Assembly (NCBI GenBank): GCA_001829495.1
Contig: MIBJ01000001.1
Location: 2,414-66,413 of the forward strand
Direction of reading: 5' to 3'
DNA from: Spirochaetes bacterium RBG_16_49_21
GTDB lineage: Bacteria; Spirochaetota; UBA4802; UBA5550
Length of the DNA: 64,000 nucleotides
The notes under the pieces are model-generated. The model saw only the letters and a program-made list of their open reading frames with translations, had not been told where the DNA came from and ran no database searches. Below are positions 24,555-46,208 of this stretch, piece after piece. A program made the position numbers and the translations under genes. How positions within the stretch are numbered: position 1 is the first letter of the stretch; each line of letters begins with the position of its first letter.

Positions 24555-25628
24555 TTAACACCGGGGAATGCTGAAGTAAAAGGTCGCGTGTTTCCCGACT
24601 TCGGATTCCACCCACATCCTGCCCTGATGCTTCTCGATTATCTTTTTGCATATATACAGGCCCAGACCCGATCCTTTCACCCCCTCCGTGCCTTTCTGCC
24701 TCAGGCGGCTGAATTTTTTAAAGAGCCGCTCTTCAATATCGGCCTTGGATATTCCTACGCCCTGGTTATGTATCGAGACAATGTAATTTCCGGCGTTCTC
24801 CTCGCAGGCTACGGTTATCGGGGTTTCGGGAGCGCCGTACTTGATGGCGTTGTTGAGGAGGTTGTTGACCACGATCTTCAGGAGATTCGGATCCCCGATT
24901 ATAAAGGGCTTGGCCGGTATCTCCGCTGCGACAATGGGCATCTTTTTCAGATTTTCCCGGTATTCGGGTATATCCAGAGCCGGCTGGATGACATCGCCTG
25001 CCAGATCGATCCTCTGGGTAAAGGCCTCAAGGTTGTCGAGGTCCATCTTGGAGAGATCGATATAATTGCGGATGATATCCTCCAGATACTGGCAGTTGCG
25101 CAGAATCTTTTCAACGGTCTTCTGCTGCTCATTGTCGAGGTTTCCCAGGTAGCCCCGGTACAGGGTCTCGGCCGTGGTATGGACCGCCGAGACCGGGCTT
25201 TTCATCTCATGGGAGACGATCGCCATAAGGTCGAGCATGGCCGCATCGGAATGCTCCTCCCGCGACTTTACCGCGTTCTCAACCACGCTCTTAAGCTCCT
25301 CCTTGGTGAAGGGCTTGGGGATATAATCAAAGGCGCCCATCTTGAGCGCTTCGCGCGTATTCTCCACCGTGGCGAAGCCGGTGAAAATAATGACGGTCAC
25401 CTCGGGCTTGGTTTTTCGCAGGGTCGACAGAACCTCCATGCCGCTGAGGCCCGGCATTTTAATATCGGTTATAACGATATCGTATTCCTTTTCCCCGGCG
25501 CGTTTCAAGCCTTCGTCCCCTGAATACGCAGTGTCTATTTGATAATTTTCTTGGCCCAGTATGCGCAGACAACTCTTCAATATGATGTCTTCATCGTCAA
25601 TTATCAGTATTTTTATTTTTTTATTCAT
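24555..25628 (-). CDS. Hybrid response-regulator receiver / histidine kinase
   Basis: N-terminal receiver (ILIIDDE...DIKMPG), H-box SHEMKSPV, and HATPase N/G boxes (NNAIKYG, GSGLGL). Confidence 0.8.
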   Translation of the reverse strand: MNKKIKILIIDDEDIILKSCLRILGQENYQIDTAYSGDEGLKRAGEKEYDIVITDIKMPGLSGMEVLSTLRKTKPEVTVIIFTGFATVENTREALKMGAFDYIPKPFTKEELKSVVENAVKSREEHSDAAMLDLMAIVSHEMKSPVSAVHTTAETLYRGYLGNLDNEQQKTVEKILRNCQYLEDIIRNYIDLSKMDLDNLEAFTQRIDLAGDVIQPALDIPEYRENLKKMPIVAAEIPAKPFIIGDPNLLKIVVNNLLNNAIKYGAPETPITVACEENAGNYIVSIHNQGVGISKADIEERLFKKFSRLRQKGTEGVKGSGLGLYICKKIIEKHQGRMWVESEVGKHATFYFSIPRC

Positions 25629-25685
25629 ATTTATAACTATTCAACTATTATTTCAGAGATTTCATTTTCATTCAAGATATAAACC

Positions 25686-27665
25686 TCAAAACCTTTGCGA
25701 CTTTGCGTCTTTGCGAGAATTTTCCAAATCTTGTTGCTTAGCCATCGAAACCTCTACCGGGAACTCAATAGTAAAGGTCGTTCCCCTGCCCACCGTGCTG
25801 TCGACTTTGATCGTGCCGTTATGCCGCTGTACAATGCCGTAGGTGACCGCAAGCCCGAGACCGGTGCCCTTGCCGGTCTCCTTGGTTGTAAAAAACGGAT
25901 CAAAGATCTTGGGCAGATTTTCTTCTTTAATTCCGATTCCGGTGTCGGAAACCCTGACAACTATCTTCCGGTCGCTCTCATCATATTCGGTAGACATGGT
26001 CAGCTCGCCCCCGTCATGCATGGCGTCGGCTGCGTTGACAGCGAGGTTGTTTATGACGGATTTTATCTGGTTGCTATCAATATTAATCTCCGGAAGATTT
26101 TCCGACAATTGTTTTTTGATCTTTATATTTTGAAAATTCACGTGCTTCTCCAGTATGGAAAGGAGATCGATTATGATCCTGTTGATGTCTCCGGGCAGCT
26201 TTTCTATCTTCGTCTCGCGCGCGAAATCGAGTATTCCTTTCACGATCTCCCTGCACCGCAGGGTCTCATCGATGATCACTTTTAAATCGCACCGGCACCG
26301 CTCATCCGTAAGCTCGTCATACAGGGCGGTGCTGTAGCTTAAAACCCCGGTGAGGGGGTTGTTGATCTCATGCGCTATGCCGGAGGCGAGCCTTCCCAGA
26401 GAGGCGAGCTTCTCCGACTGGACAATCTGCATCTCCGTCTGTTCTTTGAGCTTCTTGTCCCGCTCGTCGATCGCATCGATCATCCGGTTGAAGGTGACGC
26501 CTAAATACCCCAATTCATCATGGGAAACCGGAACGATTTTCTTACTATAGTTCCCCCGCACTATCTCCTGTGACGCGGCTACCAGCGACCGGATCGGGGT
26601 TATGATACTCCGTATCAGATACACGGAAAGGGCGACGGCGACGAGCGCGGTTATAAGGGTGACCAGCAGCGCGAAAATCGTGGCGTTCCGCTTGATGATG
26701 TTGTACTTGTCCTCGAGAATTCCCACATACAGGATGCCGATGACCTTATTGTTTATATCATGGATGGGGCTATATCCCGACAGGTACCAGTTGTTGACGA
26801 CAAAGGCCTTGTCCAGCCACACCTCCCCGTGCTCGATGACCTTCCGGTACACCTCTTCGGATACCTGCGTGCCCACGGCCCGCTTCCCCCGGCTGTTTTT
26901 CACGTTGGTCGCTATGCGTAAATCGTCCATGAATATCGTAACCGTGCCTATTTCATATCCGTTGACGCTGTCGTCTTTAAAAAGGAGCTTCTTGATGCGG
27001 TCCACCAGCTCAAAGTCGTTATTGAGCATCTTGGCGCCGTAGATCACGCCGATCAGCCTGCCGCCGCTTAAAACCGGGGCTGCCGCCGCCAGGCTCATGC
27101 CGTTGGTCTCGAACATCTTATCGATTTTGCGCGCCCGGGGCGTCGGTATGACCCTGATTCCGGCCCGGTCCGCGAGCTTCCGGTCCTCACGCAGGAGGAG
27201 CTCCCGGCTGGCAATATCCGTACCGGAGCATGATTTCCTGTTCTGAAGCACGTACCTGACGAACCGATCGCCGCTTATGTCGTCGCCGTAACCGGCCGAG
27301 CCGTTCGCCCGCGCTACGACCCTGCCGGCCGCGTCGGTTATGGTCATGATATCGATATCGAGCTCCTTCCTGACCTCATTGAGCTTTTCGCTCAAGAGGG
27401 GGCGGTTGTTCTGTAAGATGGCGGTTTGCAGATACCCGAGTGAGGCAAGGTGTTTCGTGAAAAGATATATTATATTGACGCGTTTAAAGTATATGTACCG
27501 GGCGGTATTGAGGTTGCTCCGCACGTCATCGTAAGCCTGTCCCACGACATTCTTGTTGATGACGTTCCGGCTGATTATGACCGAGTTGATCCCGCTGATT
27601 ACTACAACTGACAGCAGGCTGATGACAAGCTTGGTGCTGATGTTCGCCTTAACTATTTCCTTCAT
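25686..27665 (-). CDS. Sensor histidine kinase with a periplasmic sensor domain, HAMP, HisKA and HATPase
   Basis: Two TM segments flank a ~270 aa extracytoplasmic domain. HAMP is followed by H-box AHEINNPL, then N and G boxes. Confidence 0.8.
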
Positions 27666-27689: not shown

Positions 27690-28091
27690 TCAGGTGTGTT
27701 TCGACACCTTCTCCAGCAGCGCGTCTAAATTAACCGGCTTCGTCAAAAAATCATTGACCCCCGGCAGAAAATTCTCGGAATCATCAAGGGAGAACCGGGA
27801 ATTTGTCACCTGATTGATTGCGGTGAGCATGATGATCGGCGTATTCTTGACCTCTTTGTATTTCGACATAGGCCTGCTGTTCCGTATCTGGTAGGCGAAT
27901 TCGAAGCCGGCCGTGTCCGTCTCCATCATGATATCCAGTATTATCAGGTCCGGTTTGACGGCGGATACCTTTTTCAACGCTTCCGCACCTGAATGAGCTT
28001 CTGTAACATCATATCCTTTTGAAGTCAATACTGTTTTAAGGTTTGAACAGGTATCCGTATCATCATCAACCAGCAGTATTTTTTTACCCAT
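27690..28091 (-). CDS. Single-domain response regulator receiver
   Basis: KILLVDDD...DIMME...K receiver motifs. Confidence 0.75.
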   Translation of the reverse strand: MGKKILLVDDDTDTCSNLKTVLTSKGYDVTEAHSGAEALKKVSAVKPDLIILDIMMETDTAGFEFAYQIRNSRPMSKYKEVKNTPIIMLTAINQVTNSRFSLDDSENFLPGVNDFLTKPVNLDALLEKVSKHT

Positions 28092-28127
28092 TGAATTGCT
28101 CCATTGTCAACTATAATTGCTCTTATG

Positions 28128-28266
28128 CCCTCACCCGCGCTGCCGCGCACCCTCTCCCATTTAGCTCGGAAAAAAGGAGAGGGTTTTCGTGATATTAGCC
28201 TTCTCTCCCTCCCCCTCTCCTTTTTTCATTATTTCTTAATGGGAGAGGGGGTCGGGGGGTGAGGGT
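28128..28266. repeat. GC-rich nested palindromic element, copy C
   Basis: Outer arms ccctcacccgcg ... ggggggtgaggg, inner ccctctccc...ggagaggg (two inner hairpins). Confidence 0.65.
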
Positions 28267-28796
28267 TAATCATTCAATACCTTATATATAACGTTCCTCT
28301 CCTCCCATGCCTTGTTCGCCAGATACATATCCACCGGGAACTCGACCTGTTTGAGCTCCACCGGCGCCGCTTTCTTATTCGCCAGGCCGAGAGCCACGGC
28401 CACGCCGTAGATGATAGCCTCGGGCCGCGGCGGGCATCCGGGCACGATGAAGTTCACGGGAACGGCCTTGTCGGCTCCGCCGGTCACATTATAGGTGTCG
28501 AACCAGCAGTTCCCGCCGATCGCGCATGAGCCGATCCCGAACACGAGCTTCGGCTCGGGGATGGCAGCGTACGCCTTTTTCACCAGCGGGAGCATCGGAC
28601 GCGTGACCGCACCGGATATGAGCATGACGTCCGCATGCCGCGGCGATGCGACGAGCTTCATGCCGAACCGCTCAACGTCGTAATAGGGCGTAAGCACGTT
28701 CAGTATCTCTATATCGCAGCCGTTGCAGGCGCCGGAGTTGCAATGGTATATCCAGAGCGACTTGGTAAAGGCTTTCTTGCAGATTTTGGACAGCAT
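28266..28796 (-). CDS. hycG: Group 4 [NiFe]-hydrogenase small subunit (NuoB/HycG-like)
   Basis: NuoB-family Cys motifs CNSGACNGCDIE, GSCA and GCPP. Confidence 0.8.
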   Translation of the reverse strand: MLSKICKKAFTKSLWIYHCNSGACNGCDIEILNVLTPYYDVERFGMKLVASPRHADVMLISGAVTRPMLPLVKKAYAAIPEPKLVFGIGSCAIGGNCWFDTYNVTGGADKAVPVNFIVPGCPPRPEAIIYGVAVALGLANKKAAPVELKQVEFPVDMYLANKAWEERNVIYKVLND

Positions 28797-28798
28797 AG

Positions 28799-29344
28799 CT
28801 ATTCTCCTATTTTACGGGGCCGCTGGTGCCGGTCTGACTCTTCGAGCATCTTCTCGTCAAAATGCTCCGTGGCTTTCTGGATCACCGCGCGCAGCTCCAG
28901 ATTGTCGTACCGGAAGCCCTTGAGCCCCATCTTGTCGATCATATTGGTCTTTTCCCTGTTGTAGCATCTGCCGCACCGCTGGCAGGTGAGCATGAAGAGC
29001 TCCATGCTCAGGGTGATATCGTTCTTGTCATTCGTGGCGAGCTCATACTGTTCGCTCATGGTTATGGCGCTCTCCGGGCACACGTCTGCGCAGCGGCCGC
29101 AGTAGGTGCAGCGGGAGCCGTCGTACATCATCACGCGCAGGTCCTGGCACAAATCCCTGACCAGAATCGTCCGGGCCGGACAGTGGGCCGCGCATCCGCC
29201 GCAGCCGATGCATTTATGGTGGTCCCATACCGGCTGGCCCCGGAAATTTTTCGGGACCGGATGCGGTTCAAACGGGTACTTCAGAGTAACCACTCCCGGT
29301 TTTAAAACCAACAACACCTGTTTTATTTTACTCGTAAGCCACAC
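28799..29344 (-). CDS. hycF: Hydrogenase 4Fe-4S ferredoxin subunit (NuoI/HycF-like)
   Basis: Two CxxCxxCxxxCP motifs (CIGCGGCAAHCP, CTYCGRCADVCP). Confidence 0.75.
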   Translation of the reverse strand: MWLTSKIKQVLLVLKPGVVTLKYPFEPHPVPKNFRGQPVWDHHKCIGCGGCAAHCPARTILVRDLCQDLRVMMYDGSRCTYCGRCADVCPESAITMSEQYELATNDKNDITLSMELFMLTCQRCGRCYNREKTNMIDKMGLKGFRYDNLELRAVIQKATEHFDEKMLEESDRHQRPRKIGE

Positions 29345-29367
29345 GGCAACTCTCCTTAAAAAATAGA

Positions 29368-30264
29368 TTATACCCCGTACACGGACAATCCTACCGCGAC
29401 CAGGGAGATCGCGATCAACACCGCGTAATACTTCTGCGCCTGGTCGATTCGAAGCCGCGGATTGGTGGATCCGATGAGCGCGATGACGATAAACACGACG
29501 AATACCATTGCGAGCTGGACCAGCACGTCCACGCCGTAAGCGCCGGTTTTCGCAAAGGGAATGAAAACCATGACGAACAGGGCCGCGTAAAACATCTGCT
29601 TGAGCATCAGATAATACCGAAACAGCGCGTAATTGGGGCCGCTGTATTCGATAAAGGGCCCCTCCAGTATCTCGACCTCCGCCTCGGCTATGTCGAACGG
29701 CTGGCGTCCCACAAAGGCCTGGAGCGCCATCAGATACACGGCGAGCATGAGCACGGCCGACCAGCCGTATCCTCCCGCAGTGCTGAACACGGCTTCATCT
29801 ATCCCGAGGCTCTTCACCTTGACCGCGCCCAGAATGAAGGTCATGGCAAGCACCGGCTCGACCATGATCATGGTGATCATCTCGCGGCTTGATCCCATGA
29901 GCGCATAGGTGTTTTTGCTGGAAAGCGCTCCCAGGAGGCAGGCGACCCCGCCGAGCGTCAAAAGGTAAATTATCGTAATGACGTCAGCGTACCGTGTTAA
30001 ATAATTCGCCTGATAGCCCAGGGGCATGAAGGCGATCACGCTGAGTATCGAAGCGAGCGCGAGCATCGGCGCGACGGTGAACGCGAAATTACCGGCGCTC
30101 AGATTCTGTTTCCCCAACAATTTGAGCAGGTCGTAGTAGGGCTGGATCACCGGCGGCCCCTGCCGCGACTGTACCCGGGCGGTAATTTTCCTGACCACGC
30201 CCTCGAACAGAGGGGCGAGGACCAGAAACGCCGCTATATTGACCGCGATGTAGAGAATGTCCAT
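29368..30264 (-). CDS. hycD: Hydrogenase membrane subunit (NuoH/HycD-like)
   Basis: Polytopic membrane protein with the NuoH-like signature RxQxRxGP (RVQSRQGPP). Confidence 0.8.
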   Translation of the reverse strand: MDILYIAVNIAAFLVLAPLFEGVVRKITARVQSRQGPPVIQPYYDLLKLLGKQNLSAGNFAFTVAPMLALASILSVIAFMPLGYQANYLTRYADVITIIYLLTLGGVACLLGALSSKNTYALMGSSREMITMIMVEPVLAMTFILGAVKVKSLGIDEAVFSTAGGYGWSAVLMLAVYLMALQAFVGRQPFDIAEAEVEILEGPFIEYSGPNYALFRYYLMLKQMFYAALFVMVFIPFAKTGAYGVDVLVQLAMVFVVFIVIALIGSTNPRLRIDQAQKYYAVLIAISLVAVGLSVYGV

Positions 30265-30267
30265 GTT

Positions 30268-31950
30268 TCACCTTCCCGCGTTTAATTTAGCTCGTGAAAT
30301 CTGCTCGAGCTCCCTGCCGGTCAGACGGATTGCCTTCCCGGATCCTACGTCGACCTTCACCACCCGGTCGGTGCACGAGAAGCAGGGATCGATGCTCCCG
30401 ATGATGATCGGCAGGTCCGCGAACTGATCATTCAGAAGCATGAGCGGAACCCCCTGCAGATTCGGATACGTGGGGGCGCGCACCCGCCACCGCTCAGGCC
30501 GGTTCTCCTCTCCCGTGATCAGGTAGTGAACCACCTCTCCCCGGGGCGCCTCAACCGCCGAGATGGCGTGCCGGAGCGGCTGAATGTCTTCGGCGAATTC
30601 AGTCATGATCGGCCCGTCCGGCATCTTGTCCAGGGCCTGGCGGATTATCTTGATCGACTCGAATGTCTCCAGTATCCGCACCACGACCGTGGCCCATACG
30701 TCGCAGCTGTCCAGTACCGGCACGTCGAACTGCACCTCGTCGTATGCGGCATAGGGGTGATCTCTACGAACGTCTATGTCTATGCCCCGCGCCCGCGCCA
30801 CCGGCCCGACCAGGCTCCAGAGCCTGGCCTCCTCGTTGGTAATGCATCCTACGCCCTTGGTCCTCCGGTGGATTGCGGTGTCGCCGATGATCGCATTTTT
30901 TATTGTCATAAGCTCTTTTTCAATGGTCTTGAGCACGCCGGCCAGCTCGTCTTTAAGCTCGGGCGTGATGTCGCGGCGCACCCCGCCGACAACGATCATG
31001 CCGTAGGTCTTGCGGTTGCCCGTGAGCTTCTCGCTGAACCACATGATGCTCTCGCGCACCCGCCATGCCTGCATGAACACGGTGTCGAACCCGATCAGGT
31101 GGCCGGCCACGCCGAGCCAGAGGAGGTGCGAATGCACCCGCTCGATCTCGAGCATAATGGTGCGGATGAATTCAGCCCTGCGCGAAATCTTGAGGCCGCT
31201 GGCAAGCTCGACGGACTGGGAATACGACGTGGCGTGCACCGATCCGCATATCCCGCATATCCGCTCCGCTATGAAGGGAATCTCGTTGTAGGTGACCTGG
31301 GTCTGGCACAGCTTCTCGATGCCGCGGTGCACCATGAACCCGCGGTAGTCGCACCCCTTGATGGTCTCGCCGTCCACGAATACTGCAAAGTGAGCGGGCT
31401 CATGAAGCGTGGGATGGAACGGGCCCACCGGCACTACGGTGCACCCTTCAGGGCACTCATCGAGCTGGTACGCCACGTTCTCCGCCGGGGGCGGCATCAG
31501 GTTCCAGGGGACCTCTTTTCTCAAGGGATAGATTCCCTCAGGCCAGTCGTCGGAGAGTATGAGCCGCTTCGGCTTGGGATGTCCCGTGAACTTCATGCCC
31601 AACAGGTCCATGTACTCGCGCTCGGACCAGCCGGCGTTCGGGATATCCGGGGTAATGGAGTCGAGGACCGGGTCCTCCGCCGGAACCGCGCTTCTCAGGC
31701 ACACGAACAGGTCGTCCCGGTCAAGGCTGAAGGTATGGATGAGGCCCAGGGTCTTGTCCCGGGCGATATTGTCGTACCCGATGCTCACGAGGTACCGGCC
31801 GCCCATTCTAACAATCTCATTGGATATCTCCCTGACCCTGGCCTTGTCGATGTCGACGAAGAGCCTGCTTCTCAGGGGATGATCGAAATGGATTATAGCA
31901 CTCTTGAATCTATTAGAAAGTTTATTTTTAACTTCTTCAATAGTAAGCAT
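30268..31950 (-). CDS. hycE: Group 4 [NiFe]-hydrogenase large subunit fused to a NuoC-like N-terminal domain (HycE-like)
   Basis: L1 motif RICGICGSVH and L2 motif DPCFSCTDR, followed by a ~29 aa C-terminal extension that is a predicted HycI cleavage substrate. Confidence 0.85.
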   Translation of the reverse strand: MLTIEEVKNKLSNRFKSAIIHFDHPLRSRLFVDIDKARVREISNEIVRMGGRYLVSIGYDNIARDKTLGLIHTFSLDRDDLFVCLRSAVPAEDPVLDSITPDIPNAGWSEREYMDLLGMKFTGHPKPKRLILSDDWPEGIYPLRKEVPWNLMPPPAENVAYQLDECPEGCTVVPVGPFHPTLHEPAHFAVFVDGETIKGCDYRGFMVHRGIEKLCQTQVTYNEIPFIAERICGICGSVHATSYSQSVELASGLKISRRAEFIRTIMLEIERVHSHLLWLGVAGHLIGFDTVFMQAWRVRESIMWFSEKLTGNRKTYGMIVVGGVRRDITPELKDELAGVLKTIEKELMTIKNAIIGDTAIHRRTKGVGCITNEEARLWSLVGPVARARGIDIDVRRDHPYAAYDEVQFDVPVLDSCDVWATVVVRILETFESIKIIRQALDKMPDGPIMTEFAEDIQPLRHAISAVEAPRGEVVHYLITGEENRPERWRVRAPTYPNLQGVPLMLLNDQFADLPIIIGSIDPCFSCTDRVVKVDVGSGKAIRLTGRELEQISRAKLNAGR

Positions 31951-31967
31951 GATTTACCTCGGATCAC

Positions 31968-33839
31968 TTATTTTTTGACATTGCCGCCGGTCCACCAGAG
32001 CGCCTTCTTGAAGGCCGCGTACATGTTACTGCTCACATACCTGTTCGTATTATTCAAATCCTGGTACCCGCAGAGCCAGGTCGGCGCCGTCTTTTCCTCT
32101 GCTCCGCCTGATTTTTTCATCAGCCAGGCGAAAATAAAAGCAGCGGCGAAAACGATCAACACGACGATCGGGACGGCAACGGAGGACAAAAGAGCTTTCA
32201 TACCCGGAATGCTCACGGATACCCCCATCGCGGAATTGACGATAATGCCGTCAAGCAAAACGCCGGCGAACAGGGATTGGATTATGGAGCCGCCTGAATT
32301 CCTGAATATTCTCATGAAAGCTTCAAAATACACAAAGGGAAGGAGCCCTTGAACAACGCAGAGCAGCGCCAGGATGATTTTCGGCGCAAGCATCATTGCC
32401 GGAACCTCCTTGATATTCCTGCTGACGTTCCATTCCACGCCGGATGACGCAAAGGTCATGCCGAAAAACTTCACGTACGAGGCGAGCGTCACCGCGCTCG
32501 TAAACAGCGCGATGATCCCGAATATGGCCAGGAACAGCAGCTCGCTCCCCGCCAGTATCGAGGATGATATGATCGTCCACTTGCTCGCGAACCCGCTGAA
32601 AGCCGGCATGCCGGCGATGGAGAGGGACGCTATGCCCGCGACAAGGGCCGTTGCCGGCATGAGCTTCATCAGCCCGCCGAGCTTGTTCAGGTCCCTGGTT
32701 CCGGTTGCATAGAGCACGCTCCCGGTGGACAAAAAGAGGAGACCCTTGAATACCGTGTGGTTGAGGGTATGATACAGGGCGCCGATGATGGCGATTACGG
32801 ACAGGAGCTTTACAAAGTCATTATTGCTATGGAGCATCACCAGGCTGCACCCCACGGCGAATATGATATAACCCATCTGGCCGATGGAGTGAAAGGCGTG
32901 GAGCCGCTTCGCATCATGCTGCTTCAGCGCCTGGACCGTGCCGATGAAAAGCGTCACCGCGCCCAGGCCGGAGACGATCGCGCCCCAGAGAAAGCCGTCG
33001 AACGGAGCTTCTGCGCCTGCCGGAACCATCCAGAAAAAGGTCCGCATGATGCCGTACACGCCGGTCTTGATCATCACGCCGGAAAGGAGCGCGCTGATCG
33101 GAGAGGGCGCAATCGAGTGAGCGTCCGGGAGCCAGAGCTGGCCCAGGGGAAACACGCCGGCCTTGAAACCGAATCCAACCAGGAGAAGTCCGTAGATCGG
33201 ATATATGTATACACCCTTCGTTCCCGCCAGCTTGCCGGTGATGACGTGCAGGGGATCGCCCAAGGAAATTCCGTCAATGAAAAACGTTCCGGCCAGGACG
33301 AGAATCCACGCCAGCTCCATAAGGGCGAGATACTTGTTGGCGTTCCGGACATTTCCCTTCTCGCGGTATTCGAACCGGATAAGGAAATAGGAAGCGAGGG
33401 TCATGAGCTGCCAGGCAAGGCTAAAGCCGATAGACAGATCGTCCACGGTCACGATGCCGATCATGCCGAGTATGAAGACCGGAAAATTGAGGTAATAGCT
33501 CCAGAGCCGGTACTCGGGATAGTGCTCCATGTACTGTATTGAATAAAAGGCGCTCATGATCGCCATGAATGATATGATGCCGATGAAGAAGCCTGAAAAG
33601 CCGTCGATCAGGAGATATATGCCCACCGGCCCGATCTGGAGAAGCCCTGATTTGGCTCCGGCAGCCTCGAATATGGAAACGTAGCTTATATTCAAAAGCA
33701 GTATCCCCGCTGCCGCTACCAGGATAAAATTGATCCATCCGGCAAGCTTCCTCTTGCGGGAGAAGAGCGGCGCGATAAGGGCTGACGCAAGCAGTATGCC
33801 CAGCGCGGTAAGTAATTTTCCATACAGATCAATGTTCAT
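31968..33839 (-). CDS. hycC: Hydrogenase antiporter-like membrane subunit (NuoL/HycC-like)
   Basis: 623 aa polytopic protein with the NuoL/MrpA-family pattern (WLPDAH, GSVLxAT). Confidence 0.8.
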   Translation of the reverse strand: MNIDLYGKLLTALGILLASALIAPLFSRKRKLAGWINFILVAAAGILLLNISYVSIFEAAGAKSGLLQIGPVGIYLLIDGFSGFFIGIISFMAIMSAFYSIQYMEHYPEYRLWSYYLNFPVFILGMIGIVTVDDLSIGFSLAWQLMTLASYFLIRFEYREKGNVRNANKYLALMELAWILVLAGTFFIDGISLGDPLHVITGKLAGTKGVYIYPIYGLLLVGFGFKAGVFPLGQLWLPDAHSIAPSPISALLSGVMIKTGVYGIMRTFFWMVPAGAEAPFDGFLWGAIVSGLGAVTLFIGTVQALKQHDAKRLHAFHSIGQMGYIIFAVGCSLVMLHSNNDFVKLLSVIAIIGALYHTLNHTVFKGLLFLSTGSVLYATGTRDLNKLGGLMKLMPATALVAGIASLSIAGMPAFSGFASKWTIISSSILAGSELLFLAIFGIIALFTSAVTLASYVKFFGMTFASSGVEWNVSRNIKEVPAMMLAPKIILALLCVVQGLLPFVYFEAFMRIFRNSGGSIIQSLFAGVLLDGIIVNSAMGVSVSIPGMKALLSSVAVPIVVLIVFAAAFIFAWLMKKSGGAEEKTAPTWLCGYQDLNNTNRYVSSNMYAAFKKALWWTGGNVKK

Positions 33840-34335
33840 AAACGGGCTCCTTCTGATCCTCGGTAATGTAATCGACGATAAGATCGCAGATTAAACGAAC
33901 GCTTTGATTCACCTCGTTCGACAGGCCGGCGCCGAATCCGGTATCCCGGACCTCGATGCCGAGCAACCAGACCTTCTTGTGATACTTCTCGAGTATCTTC
34001 CCCGTCAAGGCCAGGGAAAGCTTATGGGTCGAATAGTCGCCGGCGATCTCCTCCATTTCACACAGTCTGCCGAACAGCACCGACCCGACCTCTCCCCCGG
34101 ACTGGACCGCGTCGACGATGAGGACGTTGTCGCAGTCGAGCTCCGCTATCTGGTACGCGTAATTTTCAGGCACGTCCTCGACGTTCATTAAAATTACTCC
34201 GCCCGGGACTCCCCGCTTCTTCAGTCCTTCTACGACAAAAAGGCCGGCCGCGTCGTCGCGCTTCAGGTAATTACCCATGCCCACGATGCAGGTCTTCTGA
34301 TGGAGAAGATCTTCTATCTTTACAACGAGTCCCAT
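33829..34335 (-). CDS. hycI: Hydrogenase maturation endopeptidase (HycI/HybD family)
   Basis: N-terminal motif CIVGMGNYLKRDDAAG. The start overlaps the upstream stop in a TAATG arrangement. The tracked ORF is a 5' over-extension. Confidence 0.75.
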   Translation of the reverse strand: MGLVVKIEDLLHQKTCIVGMGNYLKRDDAAGLFVVEGLKKRGVPGGVILMNVEDVPENYAYQIAELDCDNVLIVDAVQSGGEVGSVLFGRLCEMEEIAGDYSTHKLSLALTGKILEKYHKKVWLLGIEVRDTGFGAGLSNEVNQSVRLICDLIVDYITEDQKEPVYEH

Positions 34336-35168
34336 TATATCTGCTCTCCCAGGGTCTTGATCTGGCGGTAGGTGTACACCGGCCCGTCGGTGCACACCAG
34401 GGTTCTGCCGATCGAACAGTGCTGGCACTTGCCGATGCCGCACTTCATGTGCCGCTCCAGGGTTGAGACGATGCTCTCCTCGCTTATGCCGAGCCCGGTG
34501 AGCTCCTTGATGACCGCGTTGAACATGATTGGCGGGCCGCACACGAACGCGATCGTGTCCTTCACCGGCACGTCGACCTTCTTCAACAGGGTGTGCACGA
34601 ACCCGTTCTCGCCGTCCCAACCGGGAACCGGGTTGTCGATGGTGATATAGGTCTCGAATCCGGGAGCCGTCTTCCAGTCTTTAAGGTTGTACTGGTACAT
34701 GAGCTCCCGGGGAGTCCGCGCGCCCAGGAACAGGAGGATACGGCCGAACTTTTCCTTATTCTGCATCACGTGCATGATTGAAGAGCGGAGCGGGATAAGG
34801 CCGATCCCCCCGGCCACGTAGATCACGTTTTTTCCCTTGATCTCGTCAAAGGGGAATCCGTTGCCGAAGGGCCCCCGTATGCCGACTTTATCGCCGGCAA
34901 AAAGCTCATGCAGGGCGTCGGTCACCTTGCCGACCTTCCGCACCGTCAGATGAAAACGGTCGTTCTCCGGGCTCGGCGGCAGCGAAACCGCGAATTCGCC
35001 GGCACCGAAGACCGTGCACATGACGAACTGGCCTGATTTGAATTGGGGAGCCTTTCCGCCCTTTCGCTCATCAAAGGAAAGGTAAAAGGTCTTTACGTCG
35101 ACGATCTCGTCCTTGATCTCCTCAATAGTGGCGATTTCAGGGATTGTTGTGTTGTTTATCTCGCTCAT
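34335..35168 (-). CDS. NAD(P)H-binding FAD / [2Fe-2S] oxidoreductase, PyrK/HydG/AsrB-like (sulfhydrogenase gamma-like)
   Basis: Ferredoxin-reductase fold with GGIGLIPL and a C-terminal CGIGKCQHC...C 2Fe-2S motif. Confidence 0.75.
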   Translation of the reverse strand: MSEINNTTIPEIATIEEIKDEIVDVKTFYLSFDERKGGKAPQFKSGQFVMCTVFGAGEFAVSLPPSPENDRFHLTVRKVGKVTDALHELFAGDKVGIRGPFGNGFPFDEIKGKNVIYVAGGIGLIPLRSSIMHVMQNKEKFGRILLFLGARTPRELMYQYNLKDWKTAPGFETYITIDNPVPGWDGENGFVHTLLKKVDVPVKDTIAFVCGPPIMFNAVIKELTGLGISEESIVSTLERHMKCGIGKCQHCSIGRTLVCTDGPVYTYRQIKTLGEQI

Positions 35169-35177
35169 GTCACCCAC

Positions 35178-36233
35178 CTACTTTTGAATCTCACGTCTGA
35201 TATATGTGACGACATTGGGCAGGCCGATATCGCCGGGGCACACCCACGCGCACCGGCCGCAGCCGACGCAGCCCGGCCGGAGATATTTCTTCGATTGCGA
35301 ATACGATAATTTGCAGAAGAAGCGCTTGTTCCTCCGGTCCTCGACCGGTTTTCGGGGGTTATGGCCGCCCGCCATGCGGGAGTAGCCCTCATACGCGCAT
35401 GAATCCCAGGTCCGCATCCGGTCGGCGGAGTCGGCCCCGGTCACCGGGTCCATGATGTTGAAGCAGGAGCAGCTGGGGCAGACGAAGGTGCAGGCGCCGC
35501 ACTCCAGGCACTGGTCGCCGATGTATTCCCACACCTTCTCATCGATAAGGCCGGTGGTGACCCTGTTCACCACCCGCGATATCCAGGCCTTGTTGTCCTT
35601 TGCCAGGGAATCGAACAGGGACACGGATCTATCTACCCGCTTCTCCTTTTCTTTTTTATGCGAATCGCCGGCTTTCGGAAGCGACATCTTCTCTGCGAGC
35701 TTCTTCCCCTTGTCGCTCCCGACTTCGACCAGGTACTCACCGCCCAGATCGGTCAGATTGAGGTCATATCCCTCATGAGCGCTCGGGCCGGAGTCCGTGC
35801 ATACGCAGAAGCACTGCTTGAACGGCTCGACGCAGGTGTTGGTGACGATGAACATGTTCTTCCGGTGATTCCGGTACACCTCGTCGGCGAACTCCTGCCC
35901 GAGGAAGAAACGGTCAAGGCAGAGCATGCCGCTTAAGTCGCATGAGCGCATGCCGAAGAGCGCCTTGGGCGCGTCGTCGAAATCGGGCTTGATCTCCGCC
36001 TTCTTGTTTTTCCGATCGTAGGTATACGACATGATCCGCTCAAACTGCGGGAACAGTACGTGCTTGGCCGGATTCGCGGGAATGGGAAGCTCAAGGTCGA
36101 TCTCGCCCGCGTCATCCGCCTTCACGAACATGGTCTGCCGCGTCTCCTTTTCCAGTACCGGGCCGTAAACCTGATACTCCTTGTGCAATTCTTGTGCGAT
36201 ATTGGTGACTTGATCTTCTTTTATAATATACAT
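35178..36233 (-). CDS. Multi-cluster 4Fe-4S protein, HydB/AsrA-like (sulfhydrogenase beta-like)
   Basis: Several Cys clusters (CVEPFKQCFCVC, CLECGACTFVCPSCSC, CVGCGRCAWVCP). It forms a pair with the PyrK-like gene. Confidence 0.7.
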   Translation of the reverse strand: MYIIKEDQVTNIAQELHKEYQVYGPVLEKETRQTMFVKADDAGEIDLELPIPANPAKHVLFPQFERIMSYTYDRKNKKAEIKPDFDDAPKALFGMRSCDLSGMLCLDRFFLGQEFADEVYRNHRKNMFIVTNTCVEPFKQCFCVCTDSGPSAHEGYDLNLTDLGGEYLVEVGSDKGKKLAEKMSLPKAGDSHKKEKEKRVDRSVSLFDSLAKDNKAWISRVVNRVTTGLIDEKVWEYIGDQCLECGACTFVCPSCSCFNIMDPVTGADSADRMRTWDSCAYEGYSRMAGGHNPRKPVEDRRNKRFFCKLSYSQSKKYLRPGCVGCGRCAWVCPGDIGLPNVVTYIRREIQK

Positions 36234-36235
36234 GG

Positions 36236-38248
36236 CTATACCTTCACAATTCTGACCGGGATGGTCGCGTCTTCCCCTCTTTTCAGCACGTCCTTGTGCT
36301 CCAAAAAAAATTTGGTGACCATATCATGTATGAAATACGCGACATACGCCGTATTCTTCTTCACCTTGTCGGTTACCTGGACCATCGTCTCCATGGAGCC
36401 GTAGGGAGATACGATCTTGACCGGGAACCGGTCGCGCACGCCGAGCTCCTGGGCGTTTTCAGGCGCCAGGGCGACATATCCCTGCGGATACAGAAGGAGG
36501 GTGGCGTTGTACTCGCGCAGCGGGATAGTGGTCTTTTTCATGAGATTGTTCTGGTGCCAGTAGTGCTGCGCCTCGCCGATGAGGAGGAGTATCGGATATT
36601 CCTCGCTCGCCCGGGGAACCCTGAAGCTCGAGTCGACCGGCGCAAACGAGATCTTTTTCGGGACCCCGTCGAGCGAAAAGCGGGCGGTTCCGTTCGGATT
36701 CTCCTTATTGCAGGGCCACTTGATCCCGTACGAGCCCTCAAGCTTCCGGTGCGAGATGCCCGCGTATGAGGGCGTGAGCCGGGCGATCTCCGCCGTCACG
36801 TCTGCCGGGGAGGCATATCCCCATTTCGCTCCCGCCTTCTCGGCTATCATGGTGTAGAGCTTCCACCCGGGTACCGTACCTTTCGACGGCTCGAGCTTTT
36901 TCTTCGACAGCTGCACGCGGCGCTCGGTATTGGTATAGGTGCCGTCGGTCTCGACGTAGGTCGCGATCGGGAGAACCACATGCGCGTAGTTGATGAAATT
37001 ATTCCGGAACGAGCCGATATAGGCGACAAAGTCCATGTCGCGTACCTCGTTCACGTTCATGATGATGGACTCGTCATGCTCGACCACGACCATGGCCTTG
37101 AGCCTTTTGCCGGCCATGAGAAGCTCATGGATCGACGCGCCCGCCTCCGCGGGGAGTTTGACGCCCCACTCCTTGTTGAATTTCTCCCGGGCAGTCGCGT
37201 CCGATAATTGCTGGAATCCGGTGAGGAGGTCGGGCGCGATCCCCATGTCATAGCTTCCCTGCAGATTGTTGATGCCGGTTATCGGATTCACGCCGCATCC
37301 CTCCCTGCCGATCTTTCCGGCCAGGAGGAAAAGGTTGTAGATATAGCCTATGGTCTCCTGATCGAAGCCCGATATGCCGGAGGAGAAAAAGACCATCGCA
37401 GTATCGGAACGCGCCAATTCGCGGCCGACCTCTTTCAAAGCGGCCAGGTCCACACCGGTCTTATCGGCTACATCGCCGTCCTTCAATGTCTTGATCGCGG
37501 ACACGAAGCCCTCGTATCCGCTGGTGTATCTCTTTATGAAATCCGCGTTGGTGAGAAATTCTTCCAGAATGACCTTTGCCATATACGCCATGGCTATCTT
37601 GTAAGAGCCGGGCCGCACCTGTAAAAAGGAGCCGGAGAGTCGGGCGATCTGCGTGTTCCGGGTGTCGAGAGTGACGAGCCGGGCGCCGGCGCGTGCGGCC
37701 TTGTGTATCTCGCTGCCGATGATCGGGTTTTGCTTGGTTATGTCGATGCCCGCTACCAGGATGAATCGGGCCTTTGATATCTCCTCAAGGGAGCCGAGCA
37801 TGCCTGCCATGCCGGTTCCCCGGTGCATCACGTTCAGGCTTCTCCGGTGGCCGGGGTCCGAATCCAGGCTGATATTGTTCGTGTTGAACACGGCCCGCGC
37901 GAGCTTCATCAATAAAAAATTTTCTTCATTGGATGAGCGGGGGGACGCGAGGAATCCGACTTCGTCGGCCGCGTTTTTTTTGCGCTTTGCCAGGTTGTCC
38001 ACGAGAACGCCGATCGCTTCATCATAGGTCGCCTCCACGAGCTTGCCGTTTTTTCTGACGAGCGGGGTTTGTATCTTTTCATTCGTATTCAACAGCTCAT
38101 GGATATTCCATCCCCTCACGCAGAGCCTGCCCTTGCTGACCGGATGCCCCTGGAGGGGGTAAACGCCGCGCACCGAGTCTCCCCTCACGTCCAGGAGATG
38201 CCCGCATCCCGTGCCGCAGAATGTGCAAATGCCGGATTTATAATTCAT
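36236..38248 (-). CDS. FdhF-family molybdopterin-oxidoreductase homolog that lacks the Sec/Cys Mo ligand and catalytic Arg; probably non-canonical and NuoG-like
   Basis: The N-terminal CTFCGTGCG...C 4Fe-4S motif is colinear with E. coli FdhF. At the U140 position the sequence reads DSDPGHRRS (Gly); at R333 it reads GVNPITGINNLQG (Thr). Confidence 0.75.
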   Translation of the reverse strand: MNYKSGICTFCGTGCGHLLDVRGDSVRGVYPLQGHPVSKGRLCVRGWNIHELLNTNEKIQTPLVRKNGKLVEATYDEAIGVLVDNLAKRKKNAADEVGFLASPRSSNEENFLLMKLARAVFNTNNISLDSDPGHRRSLNVMHRGTGMAGMLGSLEEISKARFILVAGIDITKQNPIIGSEIHKAARAGARLVTLDTRNTQIARLSGSFLQVRPGSYKIAMAYMAKVILEEFLTNADFIKRYTSGYEGFVSAIKTLKDGDVADKTGVDLAALKEVGRELARSDTAMVFFSSGISGFDQETIGYIYNLFLLAGKIGREGCGVNPITGINNLQGSYDMGIAPDLLTGFQQLSDATAREKFNKEWGVKLPAEAGASIHELLMAGKRLKAMVVVEHDESIIMNVNEVRDMDFVAYIGSFRNNFINYAHVVLPIATYVETDGTYTNTERRVQLSKKKLEPSKGTVPGWKLYTMIAEKAGAKWGYASPADVTAEIARLTPSYAGISHRKLEGSYGIKWPCNKENPNGTARFSLDGVPKKISFAPVDSSFRVPRASEEYPILLLIGEAQHYWHQNNLMKKTTIPLREYNATLLLYPQGYVALAPENAQELGVRDRFPVKIVSPYGSMETMVQVTDKVKKNTAYVAYFIHDMVTKFFLEHKDVLKRGEDATIPVRIVKV

Positions 38249-38489
38249 ATAACAAGCTCCTCATTCTATAAATTTTATCCGCAGTCCTTTCCGCGTGAAT
38301 GCCATGAGGGGAAATCACGTTCTCGCGAAAGTAGAGCCTCCCGCTACGCCGCGCCCCGCTTGAATACTATATACAAAGATCCTTAAAAATTAATGTCAAC
38401 AGCACAGGATTAAGATAGCATTGAACGGGGAAGGCGGTCAATTCCCGATAATTGTGATTTTCTATTAACAAAAATTGGTGATGCGCGGA

Positions 38490-39161
38490 TTATTTGTTCT
38501 GCATGATCACCCACTGGATGGCGTATTTGGCGAGATCGGACGAATTTTTAAGTTTGAGCTTCTCTTTTATATTTTTCTTGTGGCTCTCCACGGTGTATAT
38601 GCTCAGATTGAGCTTCTTCGCCATCTCCTTGGTGCTGAAGCCGTTGCCGATGAGCTGGAAGATCTCGAATTCCCTGTTGCTTAAATTCTCAACCGAGATG
38701 CCGATCGTGTCCGCCGAGCCGCGGACCAGCTTGTCGATGATTTTTTTAGATATCTTTTCGCTCAGGTAGAGCTCGTCGCTCAGGATCGTTCTGATGGCAT
38801 TGATGATGTTCTTCGACGCCACCTCCTTCATGATGTAGCCGCGCGCGCCCGCGCGGATGGCGCGCTCCGCGTACACGGACTCATCGTGCATGGTGAGAAC
38901 CAGGGTCTTAATGTCGGGAAAGCGCTCGTTCAGGGACTTGATAAGCTCTATGCCGTTGACGTTCCCGGCCAGAGTGATGTCCACGATAACCACATCCGGC
39001 TTGTCGCGGTTGATGAGATCGATCGCGTCGTGCGCGGTGGAGGCCTCGCCGCAGACCTTCAGGTCTTCCTCAAGCTCGATCACCTGCTTGATCCCCTGCC
39101 GGAGAAGCGGGTGATCGTCCACGATCAGGATTTTCTTGATGATACTTGAATTTTCAGCCAT
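38490..39161 (-). CDS. NarL/LuxR-family response regulator (receiver plus HTH_LuxR)
   Basis: Receiver KILIVDDHP...D and a C-terminal LuxR HTH (EFEIFQLIGNGFSTKEMAKKLNLSIYTVESH). The start at the internal Met is uncertain. Confidence 0.75.
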   Translation of the reverse strand: MAENSSIIKKILIVDDHPLLRQGIKQVIELEEDLKVCGEASTAHDAIDLINRDKPDVVIVDITLAGNVNGIELIKSLNERFPDIKTLVLTMHDESVYAERAIRAGARGYIMKEVASKNIINAIRTILSDELYLSEKISKKIIDKLVRGSADTIGISVENLSNREFEIFQLIGNGFSTKEMAKKLNLSIYTVESHKKNIKEKLKLKNSSDLAKYAIQWVIMQNK

Positions 39162-39315
39162 CTTTTGTTTATCGCTGTAAATAGAATCCTGAGGATCAAG
39201 ATCATGCATCATTATGGATACCGCTCCGCGCAACGCGCGGTAATTCGTCAAAAAAGGTTCGATAATATATTACAGCCCGTGCAATTGGGCGTCAATACCC
39301 GGATTTTGTTATTTT

Positions 39316-43258: not shown

Positions 43259-44614
43259 ATGGAAAAAATAAAACATATATCGATATTAACCTTAATAATT
43301 ACTCTTGGCCTCGTATCCTGCTCTGACTCCGAAAACAGAATAAGCCCTCTGCTCAGGAATACGACGGTCATCCTCAACACCGGGCTTCCGCCTGAAAGCG
43401 CCTCGGCCGATAATTCCCTCCTTGACCGCATACGCCGCCTTTTCGTCCGCGACGCCGTTGCCCAGAGCGCGCCCGCCTCCTTCAGCTCGATCCGGGTGCG
43501 CGTCACCGGCGCCGACTTCGGCGTTATCGAGCAGACATTCGCCGGAGGCGGATTGATATCGCTCTCCGTTCCGTCGGGAAGCTTCAGGCAGTTCGAGGTG
43601 ACCGCATTTACCGCTCCGGGCGATCCGAATCCGGCAGTTACCTTTCGCGGAACTGCGGCAGCGAACCTGCCGGCCGGAGAGACGGTGAGCGTGCCGGTAT
43701 TGATGAGACTCAGTGAGATAAGAATCATCGTGCCGGATTTTTTGAACGGCCGCATAATAGTGATGGATGATATGAGCGGCGCAGGATGGACGGTCATCGA
43801 CGGCGGCAAGCTCGGACTCGATACGATTCAACCGTTCGATGTGGACTTCGACGCACGGGGAAGAATATACATAGCGGACCAGGTGAGCAACGGCATCATA
43901 CGGATCGACAACATCCTGGGCGATAATATGAAAAATTTTGAATCGATTAGTCGTGATGAAGGCACCCTGACGGCGGTTGCCGTGGACCACATCAATGATC
44001 GCGTGTATTATGCGACTTCTGCAACTTTATATCAAAGCAATCTGGACGGCTCGGACAAACAGCCAAAATCAATCCCCGGTTTTGTAAGCATTAACGGGAT
44101 CGACGTGGCTCCGGATGGAATGCTCTATATCGCGGGAACCGATATATCCAAAGAATCCGCCGCGGTTTTTAAATACGACCCGAACGGAAGCGGGGCAATA
44201 GTAGGCCAGTATAGTAATGGCGCTCTTCTCTATGCCGCTTCAGACGTCATGGCGCGCGGGCAGAATATTTATGTCATAAACAGCTCCGGCGGCATAGACA
44301 ATATGATACTGCAATTGGCAGTTGATTCGAGTAATATATTCACCCTCGTGAATAATTACGGCAGCCCCCCGGTAGATCTGGTAACAGATTATACTAAAAT
44401 ACCGGGTCTGTTCTATGGCCCGCAGCATTTCATCGGCGGCGGAAACGGCGCCTTGATAATAATCGATGAGGGATCATTCATATTCAGCGATTTTCTCACC
44501 CCGGTTGACCGGCTCATAGCGATACAGGACATTCAGGGAAACGGGTGGACGACGTATGGTCAGAGTGGAACAGAAACCGGCATGTTTGATTTTTACCAAA
44601 CTATAAGTTTTTGA
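43259..44614 (+). CDS. Lipoprotein with a beta-propeller (NHL / SMP-30-like) repeat region
   Basis: Signal peptide with lipobox LGLVSC, then repeated Gly/Asp-rich blades (YIADQVSNGIIRID, LYIAGTD). Confidence 0.6.
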   Translation: MEKIKHISILTLIITLGLVSCSDSENRISPLLRNTTVILNTGLPPESASADNSLLDRIRRLFVRDAVAQSAPASFSSIRVRVTGADFGVIEQTFAGGGLISLSVPSGSFRQFEVTAFTAPGDPNPAVTFRGTAAANLPAGETVSVPVLMRLSEIRIIVPDFLNGRIIVMDDMSGAGWTVIDGGKLGLDTIQPFDVDFDARGRIYIADQVSNGIIRIDNILGDNMKNFESISRDEGTLTAVAVDHINDRVYYATSATLYQSNLDGSDKQPKSIPGFVSINGIDVAPDGMLYIAGTDISKESAAVFKYDPNGSGAIVGQYSNGALLYAASDVMARGQNIYVINSSGGIDNMILQLAVDSSNIFTLVNNYGSPPVDLVTDYTKIPGLFYGPQHFIGGGNGALIIIDEGSFIFSDFLTPVDRLIAIQDIQGNGWTTYGQSGTETGMFDFYQTISF

Positions 44615-44652
44615 GATGTCATTGATGACACAAATTCCTCGTCCTCCGGAGA

Positions 44653-44970
44653 TCAGAGGCCGACCATCCTGACGGCTTCTTCAAGCTCCAGAGCGGGAAA
44701 GATCGAAAAGGAAAGTCCCGGCACGCTTGAGTATGCTTTCACCCACCGCCCGTTCAGGAATTCAATAGCGTCCGCCATCCTTTCCCTATCCACATCCCAT
44801 ATAATTATGTTCTGGATCCCCACCCCCTTCTCGATGTAACAGTAGTTTCCCTTTATATGAATGTATGCAGGAGAGGAAGGAAGCTTGGAGAATTTCTTAA
44901 CCAATTCGTCTTTGCTGTCCAACGGACAGGATAGCAGGGCTATTATAACCATTGAGAATCTCCATATCAT
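44653..44970 (-). CDS. Hypothetical small protein
   Basis: ORF only; no motif recognised. Confidence 0.35.
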   Translation of the reverse strand: MIWRFSMVIIALLSCPLDSKDELVKKFSKLPSSPAYIHIKGNYCYIEKGVGIQNIIIWDVDRERMADAIEFLNGRWVKAYSSVPGLSFSIFPALELEEAVRMVGL

Positions 44971-46146: not shown

Positions 46147-46208
46147 AAGATCAACTATATTCAATTTTTCCAAGTCGTTCATTAATAAAATTGATCAAGG
46201 AGCCTGAT

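Follow-up and report, generated by a model that had tools for sequence, protein, structure and literature searches.

A conserved gene cluster combining a Hyc-type [NiFe] hydrogenase, a sulfhydrogenase-type NAD(P)H module and a degenerate FdhF homologue in Spirochaetes bacterium RBG_16_49_21

Relation to described enzymes

The HydDB scheme for group 4 [NiFe] hydrogenases contains only classes coupled to low-potential donors (formate, CO and reduced ferredoxin), none of them coupled to NAD(P)H (PMC5037454). Here we describe a cluster of nine structural genes from Spirochaetes bacterium RBG_16_49_21 (assembly GCA_001829495.1), situated on the minus strand of a 64,000-nt stretch of contig MIBJ01000001.1 (positions 2,414 to 66,413; ‘the window’, whose own numbering is used throughout). 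The cluster runs from 38248 to 28266, and in it the genes of a membrane-bound group 4 hydrogenase stand beside those of an NAD(P)H-binding flavoprotein, a poly-FeS protein and a homologue of the formate dehydrogenase FdhF. On balance we take the nine genes to encode a single NAD(P)H:H+ / H2:NAD(P)+ oxidoreductase that is bound to the membrane and probably coupled to ion movement, and in which the subunit derived from FdhF has no catalytic role. The initial annotation of the window had proposed an NAD(P)H-linked energy-converting hydrogenase and not a formate hydrogenlyase (FHL), and every prediction of this proposal that could be computed held, so far as a function can be read from genes. The ten genes that it named (these nine and the gene of a LuxR-type regulator) were all found by open reading frame (ORF) listing and by Pfam and NCBIfam profile searches, on the minus strand, at the coordinates given below and with the predicted domains.

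When the literature was searched for this set of genes or for any characterised group 4 enzyme linked to NAD(P)H, the one match was the ‘enigmatic’ cluster of Saganbacteria RX5A (Matheus Carnevali et al. 2019; PMC6349859 Supplementary Note 5; 10.1101/328856), in which an FdhH-like protein with a single 4Fe-4S domain defied classification as a formate dehydrogenase (FDH). That cluster also has asrA-like, asrB-like and cooF-like genes, and its function, according to the authors, ‘could not be determined’ (PMC6349859). By its published description, which gives no catalytic residues for the MopB protein, the RX5A cluster shares with that of the window an FdhH-like gene and asrA/asrB-like genes adjoining a membrane-bound group 4 hydrogenase, but the RX5A hydrogenase is of the Mrp-Mbh type, its subunits include antiporter-like ones, and a CooF-like protein is encoded in addition. 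The literature thus agrees with the initial statement that no characterised complex with this architecture was known, the related RX5A cluster having been noted earlier without a function.

With E. coli FHL-1 (Hyc, group 4a; 7z0s/7z0t) the window cluster shares a HycE-type large subunit in which NuoC- and NuoD-like parts are fused, the Ni-Fe motifs, a tail of the kind cleaved by HycI, homologues of HycG, HycF and HycD, one antiporter-like subunit and an FdhF homologue of the same fold. The large subunit (30268-31950, 560 aa; Complex1_30kDa, NiFeSe_Hases and Complex1_49kDa) shows 41% identity to E. coli HycE in an alignment of 516 residues that includes the C-terminal tail; among solved structures it is closest to FHL subunit 5 (7z0s_E) and then to MbhL. 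The RxCGxCxxxH and DPCxxCxxR motifs reported initially are both present, as L1 (RICGICGSVH, at residue 230) and L2 (DPCFSCTDR, at residue 521), and both are intact also in every complete homologous cluster. L2 is followed by a C-terminal extension of 31 residues, the processing of which fits the presence in the operon of a gene for a HycI-type maturation endopeptidase (33829-34335, 168 aa; Pfam HycI; TIGR00072, 95 bits, above the cutoff). The NuoC-like fusion, the extension and the in-operon protease make up the HycE-type architecture.

NuoB-, NuoI-, NuoH- and NuoL-like partner subunits are all encoded as well: a HycG/NuoB-like small subunit (28266-28796, 176 aa; Oxidored_q6; NuoB subfamily NF005012, 136 bits, above the cutoff), a HycF/NuoI-like ferredoxin subunit (28799-29344, 181 aa; NCBIfam formate hydrogenlyase FeS subunit, 126 bits), a HycD/NuoH-like membrane subunit (29368-30264, 298 aa; Pfam NADHdh, 191 bits) and an antiporter-like HyfB/HycC/NuoL-like membrane subunit (31968-33839, 623 aa; Proton_antipo_M), whose top NCBIfam match is hydrogenase 4 subunit B (HyfB, 354 bits). 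Identity to the E. coli proteins is 46% for HycG, 38% for HycF and 30% for HycD; the FeS cysteines of HycG are invariant in 9 or 10 of 10 cluster loci, and 12 cysteines of HycF in 10 of 10. Judged by these motifs and subunits, the module is a genuine Hyc-type (FHL-like, 4a-like) group 4 [NiFe] hydrogenase. Assignment to HydDB group 4f (‘Ehf’, putatively formate-coupled), which in the literature covers Ech-like complexes of six or seven genes and Ehr complexes without Ni-Fe ligands, was ruled out, the large subunit being HycE-like with intact Ni-Fe ligands. Beyond the two CxxCxxCxxxC motifs of the HycF-like protein, C66, C121, C124 and C127 are invariant in all 10 cluster loci, and E. coli HycF aligns a CxCxxC there; these extra cysteines may hold a third cluster or make up a metal site that matters for docking the input module.

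The cluster differs from FHL-1 in having no HycB, in an FdhF homologue without Sec140, Arg333 and Lys44 (E. coli numbering), in additional beta and gamma subunits of the sulfhydrogenase type, and in a different gene order with HycI in the middle of the operon. No HycB-like ORF was detected between 28266 and 38248 by ORF listing or by Pfam and NCBIfam profiles. Since neither a competent FdhF nor HycB is encoded, the cluster does not belong to the functional FHL family.

The beta and gamma subunits resemble those of P. furiosus hydrogenase I (sulfhydrogenase I; group 3b, 9nez) and AsrA/AsrB, with which they share the Cys motifs, the FAD and NAD(P) domains and a PyrK-type 2Fe-2S site. The beta subunit (ShyB/HydB/AsrA-like; 35178-36233, 351 aa; Pfam Fer4_22; NCBIfam ShyB 166 bits, AsrA 146 bits) has 9nez_B as its best solved homologue (129 bits), to which all its Cys motifs align, including two CxxCxxCxxxCP motifs and extra N-terminal Cys cluster motifs; 15 of its cysteines are invariant in 11 of 11 cluster loci, which come from different phyla. 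The gamma subunit (HydG/ShyC/AsrB/PyrK-like; 34335-35177, 280 aa) matches 9nez_C best (186 bits), and the Pfam check suggested for this PyrK-like protein returned FAD_binding_6, NAD_binding_1 and DHODB_Fe-S_bind. Its GGIGLIP (GGxGxxP) motif and four 2Fe-2S cysteines (CxxxxCxxC...C, PyrK-type) are invariant in the same number of loci. Scores against the ShyB, ShyC, HydB, HydG, AsrA and AsrB models of NCBIfam (142-227 bits) lie below the equivalog cutoffs (289-750), and therefore the two subunits are relatives and not orthologues of these proteins. P. furiosus sulfhydrogenase I is NADP(H)-dependent, and the NCBIfam names agree with this. What had been called an NAD(P)H-dehydrogenase-like pair is a true homologue of the beta/gamma pair of that enzyme, with all cofactor motifs. 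The partners are different: the sulfhydrogenase pair works with cytosolic group 3b alpha and delta subunits and AsrA/AsrB with the sirohaem protein AsrC, whereas the window pair is encoded with a membrane-bound group 4 hydrogenase.

The cluster has counterparts to NuoB, C, D, H, I and L of respiratory complex I, and like complex I it combines a flavoprotein that oxidises NAD(P)H with a MopB protein, which shows NuoG-like losses. However, the window flavoprotein is of the FNR/PyrK type with FAD, while complex I has NuoF/NuoE with FMN; the window MopB protein starts directly at the FS0 cluster and has no NuoG-type N-terminal FeS domain; an intact Ni-Fe site takes the place of the quinone site of complex I; and there is one antiporter-like subunit only. 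ORF and profile searches of the cluster found neither a NuoE/NuoF FMN flavoprotein nor the NuoG N-terminal 2Fe-2S/4Fe-4S domain. The cluster is thus not a complex I, because NuoE/F are missing and the Ni-Fe site is intact, and the likeness appears to be convergent, because the flavoprotein is from the FNR/PyrK family and the FdhF homologue lacks the NuoG N-terminal domain. For these reasons the description of the locus as a ‘complex-I-like intermediate’ had to be given up in favor of convergence. The design would be that of a hybrid, in which the hydrogenase and membrane arm of FHL-1 are combined with the NAD(P)H input of a sulfhydrogenase.

Gene order and distribution

The nine structural genes are separated, from 38248 to 28266, by junctions of 2, 0, −1 (TAATG), −11, 17, 3, 23 and 2 nt. 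The start of the HycI gene overlaps the stop of the HydG-like gene by 1 nt (the TAATG junction), so that HycI, placed between the input module and the Hyc genes, overlaps its neighbours on both sides, and the short junctions extend across both boundaries of the NAD(P)H module. Upstream of the FdhF-like gene (36236-38248) lies an intergenic region of 241 nt (38249-38489, minus strand) with promoter-like hexamers and a GGAG ribosome-binding site, the probable operon start, and beyond it the gene for a LuxR/NarL-type response regulator (38490-39251, minus strand, 253 aa; Pfam Response_reg and GerE). Scans for terminators and promoters within the operon gave counts near the shuffled expectation. 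The proposal of a single operon, made on the strength of the TAATG and the 2-nt gaps, therefore stands for the nine tightly coupled structural genes but probably not for the LuxR gene, because of the 241-nt gap with its promoter-like sites and because its position is not kept in a related Spirochaetota locus (L003), where the equivalent regulator sits 5 kb off; it is probably a neighbouring gene with its own transcript. That the HydB- and HydG-like genes are part of the unit is borne out by their translational coupling to both neighbours and by their co-linearity with the hydrogenase genes in metagenome-assembled genomes (MAGs) assigned to six phyla.

These MAGs came from a scan of one genome per GTDB species with two peptide patterns, in which the best 80 of at least 600 stretches were retained and the loci were searched by tblastn with all window proteins; few Spirochaetota species were caught, and the list of taxa is a lower bound. 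Two distant family members (51% and 55% identity) have an identical nine-gene order together with the downstream receiver gene described below. The co-occurrence of this exact gene order, which the initial annotation had suggested checking, was seen in Spirochaetota (L001, L003/L008, L007), Aminicenantes/Saccharicenans (L010-L012), a MAG labelled Thiodictyon (L013), Terriglobia (L014), Chthonomonadales (L015) and Nitrospirota (L056). The labels Leptospira biflexa (the L009 MAG) and Thiodictyon sp. (the L013 MAG) are odd for this cluster and may reflect mis-binning or mislabelling, and therefore the number of phyla should be read with caution.

All FdhF-like proteins encoded in full clusters lack Cys/Sec140, Arg333, Lys44 and His181 and keep FS0. 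All 70 other loci among the best 80 have the canonical CARxC/UH and NPLRGQNNV motifs and Lys44 (Leu at position 44 in three); they include FdhA alone, FdhA with HydB/G-like proteins but no hydrogenase, and true FdhF with Hyc/Hyf (L041, L078). Among the best 80 loci, the degenerate FdhF was seen only in the combined beta/gamma and Hyc context, and in every locus of this kind.

Trios of FdhA, HydB-like and HydG-like genes without a hydrogenase are widespread and were found in many of the loci (L016-L023, L031, L033, L039, L043, L047, L062, L067 and L086); trio hosts are Desulfuromonadaceae, Geobacteraceae, Thermodesulfovibrionia, Clostridium, Methanothrix and other MAGs. The trio FdhA always keeps Cys/Sec140, His141 and Arg333, and it keeps Lys44 in all but L040 (Leu). 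We found no description of the stand-alone trio in the literature; presumably these are NAD(P)+-dependent formate dehydrogenases. Among the matches listed, the canonical relatives closest to the FdhF-like protein (33-37% identity) are mostly FdhA proteins flanked by HydB/G-like genes, which suggests that the input module was derived from an FdhA-beta-gamma enzyme.

The existence of such trios also favors the view that the operon encodes two enzymes, a soluble FdhF-like/beta/gamma oxidoreductase and a Hyc-type hydrogenase fed at HycF by ferredoxin or another carrier, as in Ech and Mbh. Genes for a 2-oxoacid:ferredoxin oxidoreductase (OFOR), present in the window about 2 kb upstream of the cluster, would agree with this. 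We nevertheless consider two separate enzymes unlikely: the modules are strictly co-linear in MAGs assigned to six phyla, among the best 80 loci FdhF is degenerate only when the Hyc genes are attached, the HycI gene overlaps both modules from its place between them, and the OFOR neighbourhood is not conserved in the Spirochaetota loci L001 and L003.

The FdhF-like subunit and the proposed mechanism

The FdhF-like MopB protein (670 aa; Molybdop_Fe4S4, Molybdopterin and Molydop_binding) is predicted to be non-catalytic. Residues were placed by HMMER alignment to solved FDHs and by MAFFT alignments with E. coli FdhF. Relative to E. coli FdhH, Sec140 corresponds to Gly133, His141 to His134, Arg333 to Thr324 and Lys44 to Arg45, and His181 is replaced by Asn. 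The loss of both the Mo-ligating Sec/Cys and the catalytic Arg, first seen in a manual alignment, is thus confirmed, and neither the window nor any cluster locus encodes the catalytic combination of Sec/Cys140, His141 and Arg333. The four cysteines of the FS0 4Fe-4S cluster (Cys8/11/15/43) are all kept and invariant. The score against TIGR01591, the FDH-alpha equivalog, is 444.5 bits over a nearly full-length alignment (cutoff 666.25).

A set of 114 full-length homologues, which come nearly all from Spirochaetota MAGs and are 51% or more identical, has Gly at position 140 in 111 members and Thr or Ala at position 333 in 110; Arg at position 44 is likewise conserved, and all four FS0 cysteines are kept. 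The new residue states are themselves conserved in the family (Gly133 97%, His134 96%, Arg135 97%, Asn at position 181 100% and Asp at position 402 96%). In an exhaustive search of 1.84 billion cluster representatives, the Spirochaetota FdhF-like family made up a single 50% cluster; the next relatives, at 34-46% identity, also lack the catalytic residues, and canonical FDHs follow at ∼30-33%.

The AlphaFold2 model of the subunit (pLDDT 87, pTM 0.91) superposes on E. coli FdhH (1fdi) with a TM-score of 0.88 and on NuoG with 0.70, so that the full MopB fold is kept. The fold search confirms the fold but says nothing on cofactor occupancy, and the family was therefore compared with E. coli NapA, FdnG and NuoG. 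NapA and FdnG bind the same cofactor as FDH and differ from it in substrate or architecture; NuoG has no pterin cofactor. A set of 63 canonical FDH cluster representatives has 101 positions with 85% conservation or more, of which 69 are kept and 32 changed in the family. Fifty conserved FDH positions are also identical in NapA and FdnG, and 16 of these universal positions are changed, including K44R, N176D, H181N and R581K, with K679 deleted. NuoG is changed too at 14 of the 16 lost positions versus 10 of the 34 retained ones (odds ratio 16.8, Fisher p = 1.8e-4), and three replacements (K44R, N176D and R581K) are identical in NuoG and the FdhF-like protein. Taken together, these findings suggest that the subunit is not catalytic, keeps one FeS cluster and probably has lost the pterin cofactor.

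In a neighbour-joining tree the degenerate FdhF-like proteins form one long-branched clade with two subclades, which differ at the former active site (G-H/Q/L versus Y-S/V; T/A-G versus T/S-E); His141 is also missing in one of them. No shared alternative catalytic residue is apparent, because the subclades differ in this way. The FdhF-like protein is the fastest-evolving large subunit, with 51% identity to its counterpart in L001 versus 65-80% for the others, and its lowest rank in identity repeats against other phyla. A decaying pseudogene was ruled out, because the gene has its full length, its product is predicted to fold with high confidence and it is conserved across MAGs from six assigned phyla.

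Other FdhF-like cluster representatives (P0126-P0269) were observed to include many without Cys140 and Arg333, with recurrent motifs of their own (SARFYQAP, GGY[AS]Y) and with ∼900-aa forms carrying an N-terminal extension. Judging from these representatives, degenerate FDH-like proteins appear to be common and to have several separate origins. QrcB, named in the NCBIfam results, is another degenerate MopB subunit of respiratory complexes, and ActB is a further one.

We propose the following mechanism. The formate-oxidising input of FdhF and HycB would have been replaced by a module from an FdhA-beta-gamma enzyme, in which gamma would exchange hydride with NAD(P)(H) via FAD and 2Fe-2S, and beta would carry several 4Fe-4S clusters. 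Electrons would pass from NAD(P)H to the gamma FAD, the 2Fe-2S cluster, the beta 4Fe-4S clusters, HycF, HycG and the Ni-Fe site, the cluster of the FdhF-like protein possibly lying on the path between beta and HycF. For the FdhF-derived subunit we accordingly propose one of two roles: a scaffold away from the path, comparable to the MopB domain of NuoG with its cluster N7, or an adaptor with one cluster that would bridge beta and HycF. The potential of NAD(P)+/NAD(P)H is about −320 mV and that of H+/H2 is −414 mV at 1 bar and near −300 mV at ∼10 Pa H2; because these values are close, the reaction would be near equilibrium. The membrane arm of HycD and the HyfB-like subunit would then most plausibly couple it to ion flow in either direction: NAD(P)H-dependent H2 evolution could be driven by an ion gradient, provided that the H2 level is not very low, or H2 oxidation with NAD(P)+ could build an ion gradient and conserve energy.

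Several considerations weigh against this interpretation. An NAD(P)H-fed proton-pumping hydrogenase is thermodynamically unfavourable at standard conditions, and therefore the direction and the coupling are speculative. The binding of the FdhF-like/beta/gamma module to the Hyc module is deduced from the genes, and the genome scan, having been seeded with the FdhF-like protein, is blind to HydBG-Hyc clusters without it. No preference for NADH or NADPH could be predicted. As to the FdhF-like subunit, 34 of the 50 universal positions are kept and the predicted fold is complete; arsenite oxidase holds Mo-bisPGD with no protein ligand, and thus a missing Cys/Sec is not proof of cofactor loss. The good conservation, in one subclade, of His141 and of the Arg after it is a hint that the pocket may be functional.

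These last points bear on an alternative in which the FdhF-like protein binds a pterin with no protein ligand, or another cofactor, and carries out a non-formate reaction, making a three-way enzyme with NAD(P)H and H2. The confidently predicted MopB fold, the retained universal positions and the strong conservation of the new residue states all speak for it. We find it quite unlikely, as the lost positions match those of cofactor-free NuoG, the two subclades offer no common alternative catalytic residue and the protein evolves fastest among the large subunits.

An electron-confurcating or bifurcating enzyme, in which NAD(P)H at the gamma FAD and reduced ferredoxin near the 4Fe-4S cluster of the FdhF-like protein would jointly drive H2 formation, could account for the retention in all members of an otherwise dead-end surface cluster, and the ferredoxin-producing OFOR genes are nearby in the window. 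It is very unlikely, since the Pfam and NCBIfam matches include no bifurcating flavin site of a known type (NfnB, HydB/Bfu or EtfAB), PyrK/FNR-type FAD modules are simple converters between hydride and one-electron transfer, and such an enzyme would not need the membrane arm. That the complex is still a formate hydrogenlyase with a non-canonical active site, as the overall FHL-like gene set, the near full-length TIGR01591 alignment and some automatic annotations of homologues (‘formate dehydrogenase major subunit’) might suggest, is hardly credible given the residues lost (His141 too in one subclade), the absence of HycB, a score under the curated cutoff and the 70 other FdhA loci among the best 80 matches, all of which keep Cys/Sec140, His141 and Arg333.

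We therefore retain the interpretation of the nine genes as encoding one NAD(P)H-linked, probably ion-coupled hydrogenase. Extended to the whole family, the proposal is that a widespread uncharacterised class of membrane-bound [NiFe] hydrogenases acts as a reversible NAD(P)H:proton oxidoreductase linked to an ion gradient, having arisen when an NAD(P)+-dependent FdhA-beta-gamma FDH was grafted onto a Hyc hydrogenase and the FDH site then decayed, a repetition of the gain by complex I of its N-module and a dead NuoG. We would give this broader proposal about an even chance.

Neighbouring genes and implications

A stand-alone receiver-domain response regulator (27690-28091, minus strand, 133 aa; Pfam Response_reg) is encoded 3′ of HycG. 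The gene is found at the same place in L001, L003, L007 and L011-L013 (three phyla), and is a conserved downstream partner of the cluster. Directly downstream of it, at 24555-27665, genes for a Cache/HAMP histidine kinase and a receiver-histidine-kinase hybrid are situated, and L001 has a similar Cache_3-Cache_2 kinase upstream of the cluster; the kinases near the receiver gene suggest a dedicated two-component circuit. The gap between HycG and the receiver gene is 174 nt in the window versus 12 nt in L001 and L003. This spacer (28092-28265) is packed with nested GC-rich palindromes (CCCTCACCC...GGGTGAGGG, GGAGAGGG/CCCTCTCC), contains a perfect 15-nt inverted repeat (28169-28183 / 28213-28227) and looks like a small REP/MITE-like element; a related motif pair is also present in the intergenic gap 6320-6351.

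On the plus strand, a 608-codon ORF (30526-32352) runs antisense to the HycE and HyfB-like genes and most likely arises mechanically from the GC-rich coding sequence of the opposite strand. A 451-aa ORF with no Pfam match (43259-44614, plus strand) lies within the region 43259-46520, beside a low-GC stretch (0.42 at 44001-46000 versus ∼0.54 elsewhere); this region may be foreign DNA.

The segments 552-14304 and 46508-63254 are unusually rich in genes of central oxidative metabolism. The NADH-producing TCA-cycle and beta-oxidation genes there encode aconitase, two malate/lactate dehydrogenase homologues, citrate synthase, fumarase, malic enzyme, 2-oxoglutarate dehydrogenase E1/E2/E3, two SdhA/SdhB sets (4513-7095 and 50869-54338), succinyl-CoA synthetase, two thiolases and three acyl-CoA dehydrogenases. 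An ADP-forming acetyl-CoA synthetase accompanies the OFOR in the window. An NADH-producing neighbourhood of this kind fits, if weakly, the disposal of NADH as H2; it is weak evidence because it is not conserved in the relatives.

If the proposed function is correct, the cluster would be a new node joining the NAD(P)H pool, H2 and an ion gradient, with relevance to sediments, digesters, syntrophy and H2 thresholds. Anaerobes oxidising organic acids could vent NADH as H2 at an ion-motive cost or, alternatively, could gain energy from H2 with NAD(P)+ as the acceptor. The labels ‘formate dehydrogenase major subunit’ probably overstate formate metabolism in MAGs with this cluster. With its hydrogenase core, flavoprotein and degenerate molybdoenzyme, the complex would also parallel, independently and in living organisms, the way in which complex I was put together, and a long-discussed scenario for the evolution of complex I would become open to experiment.

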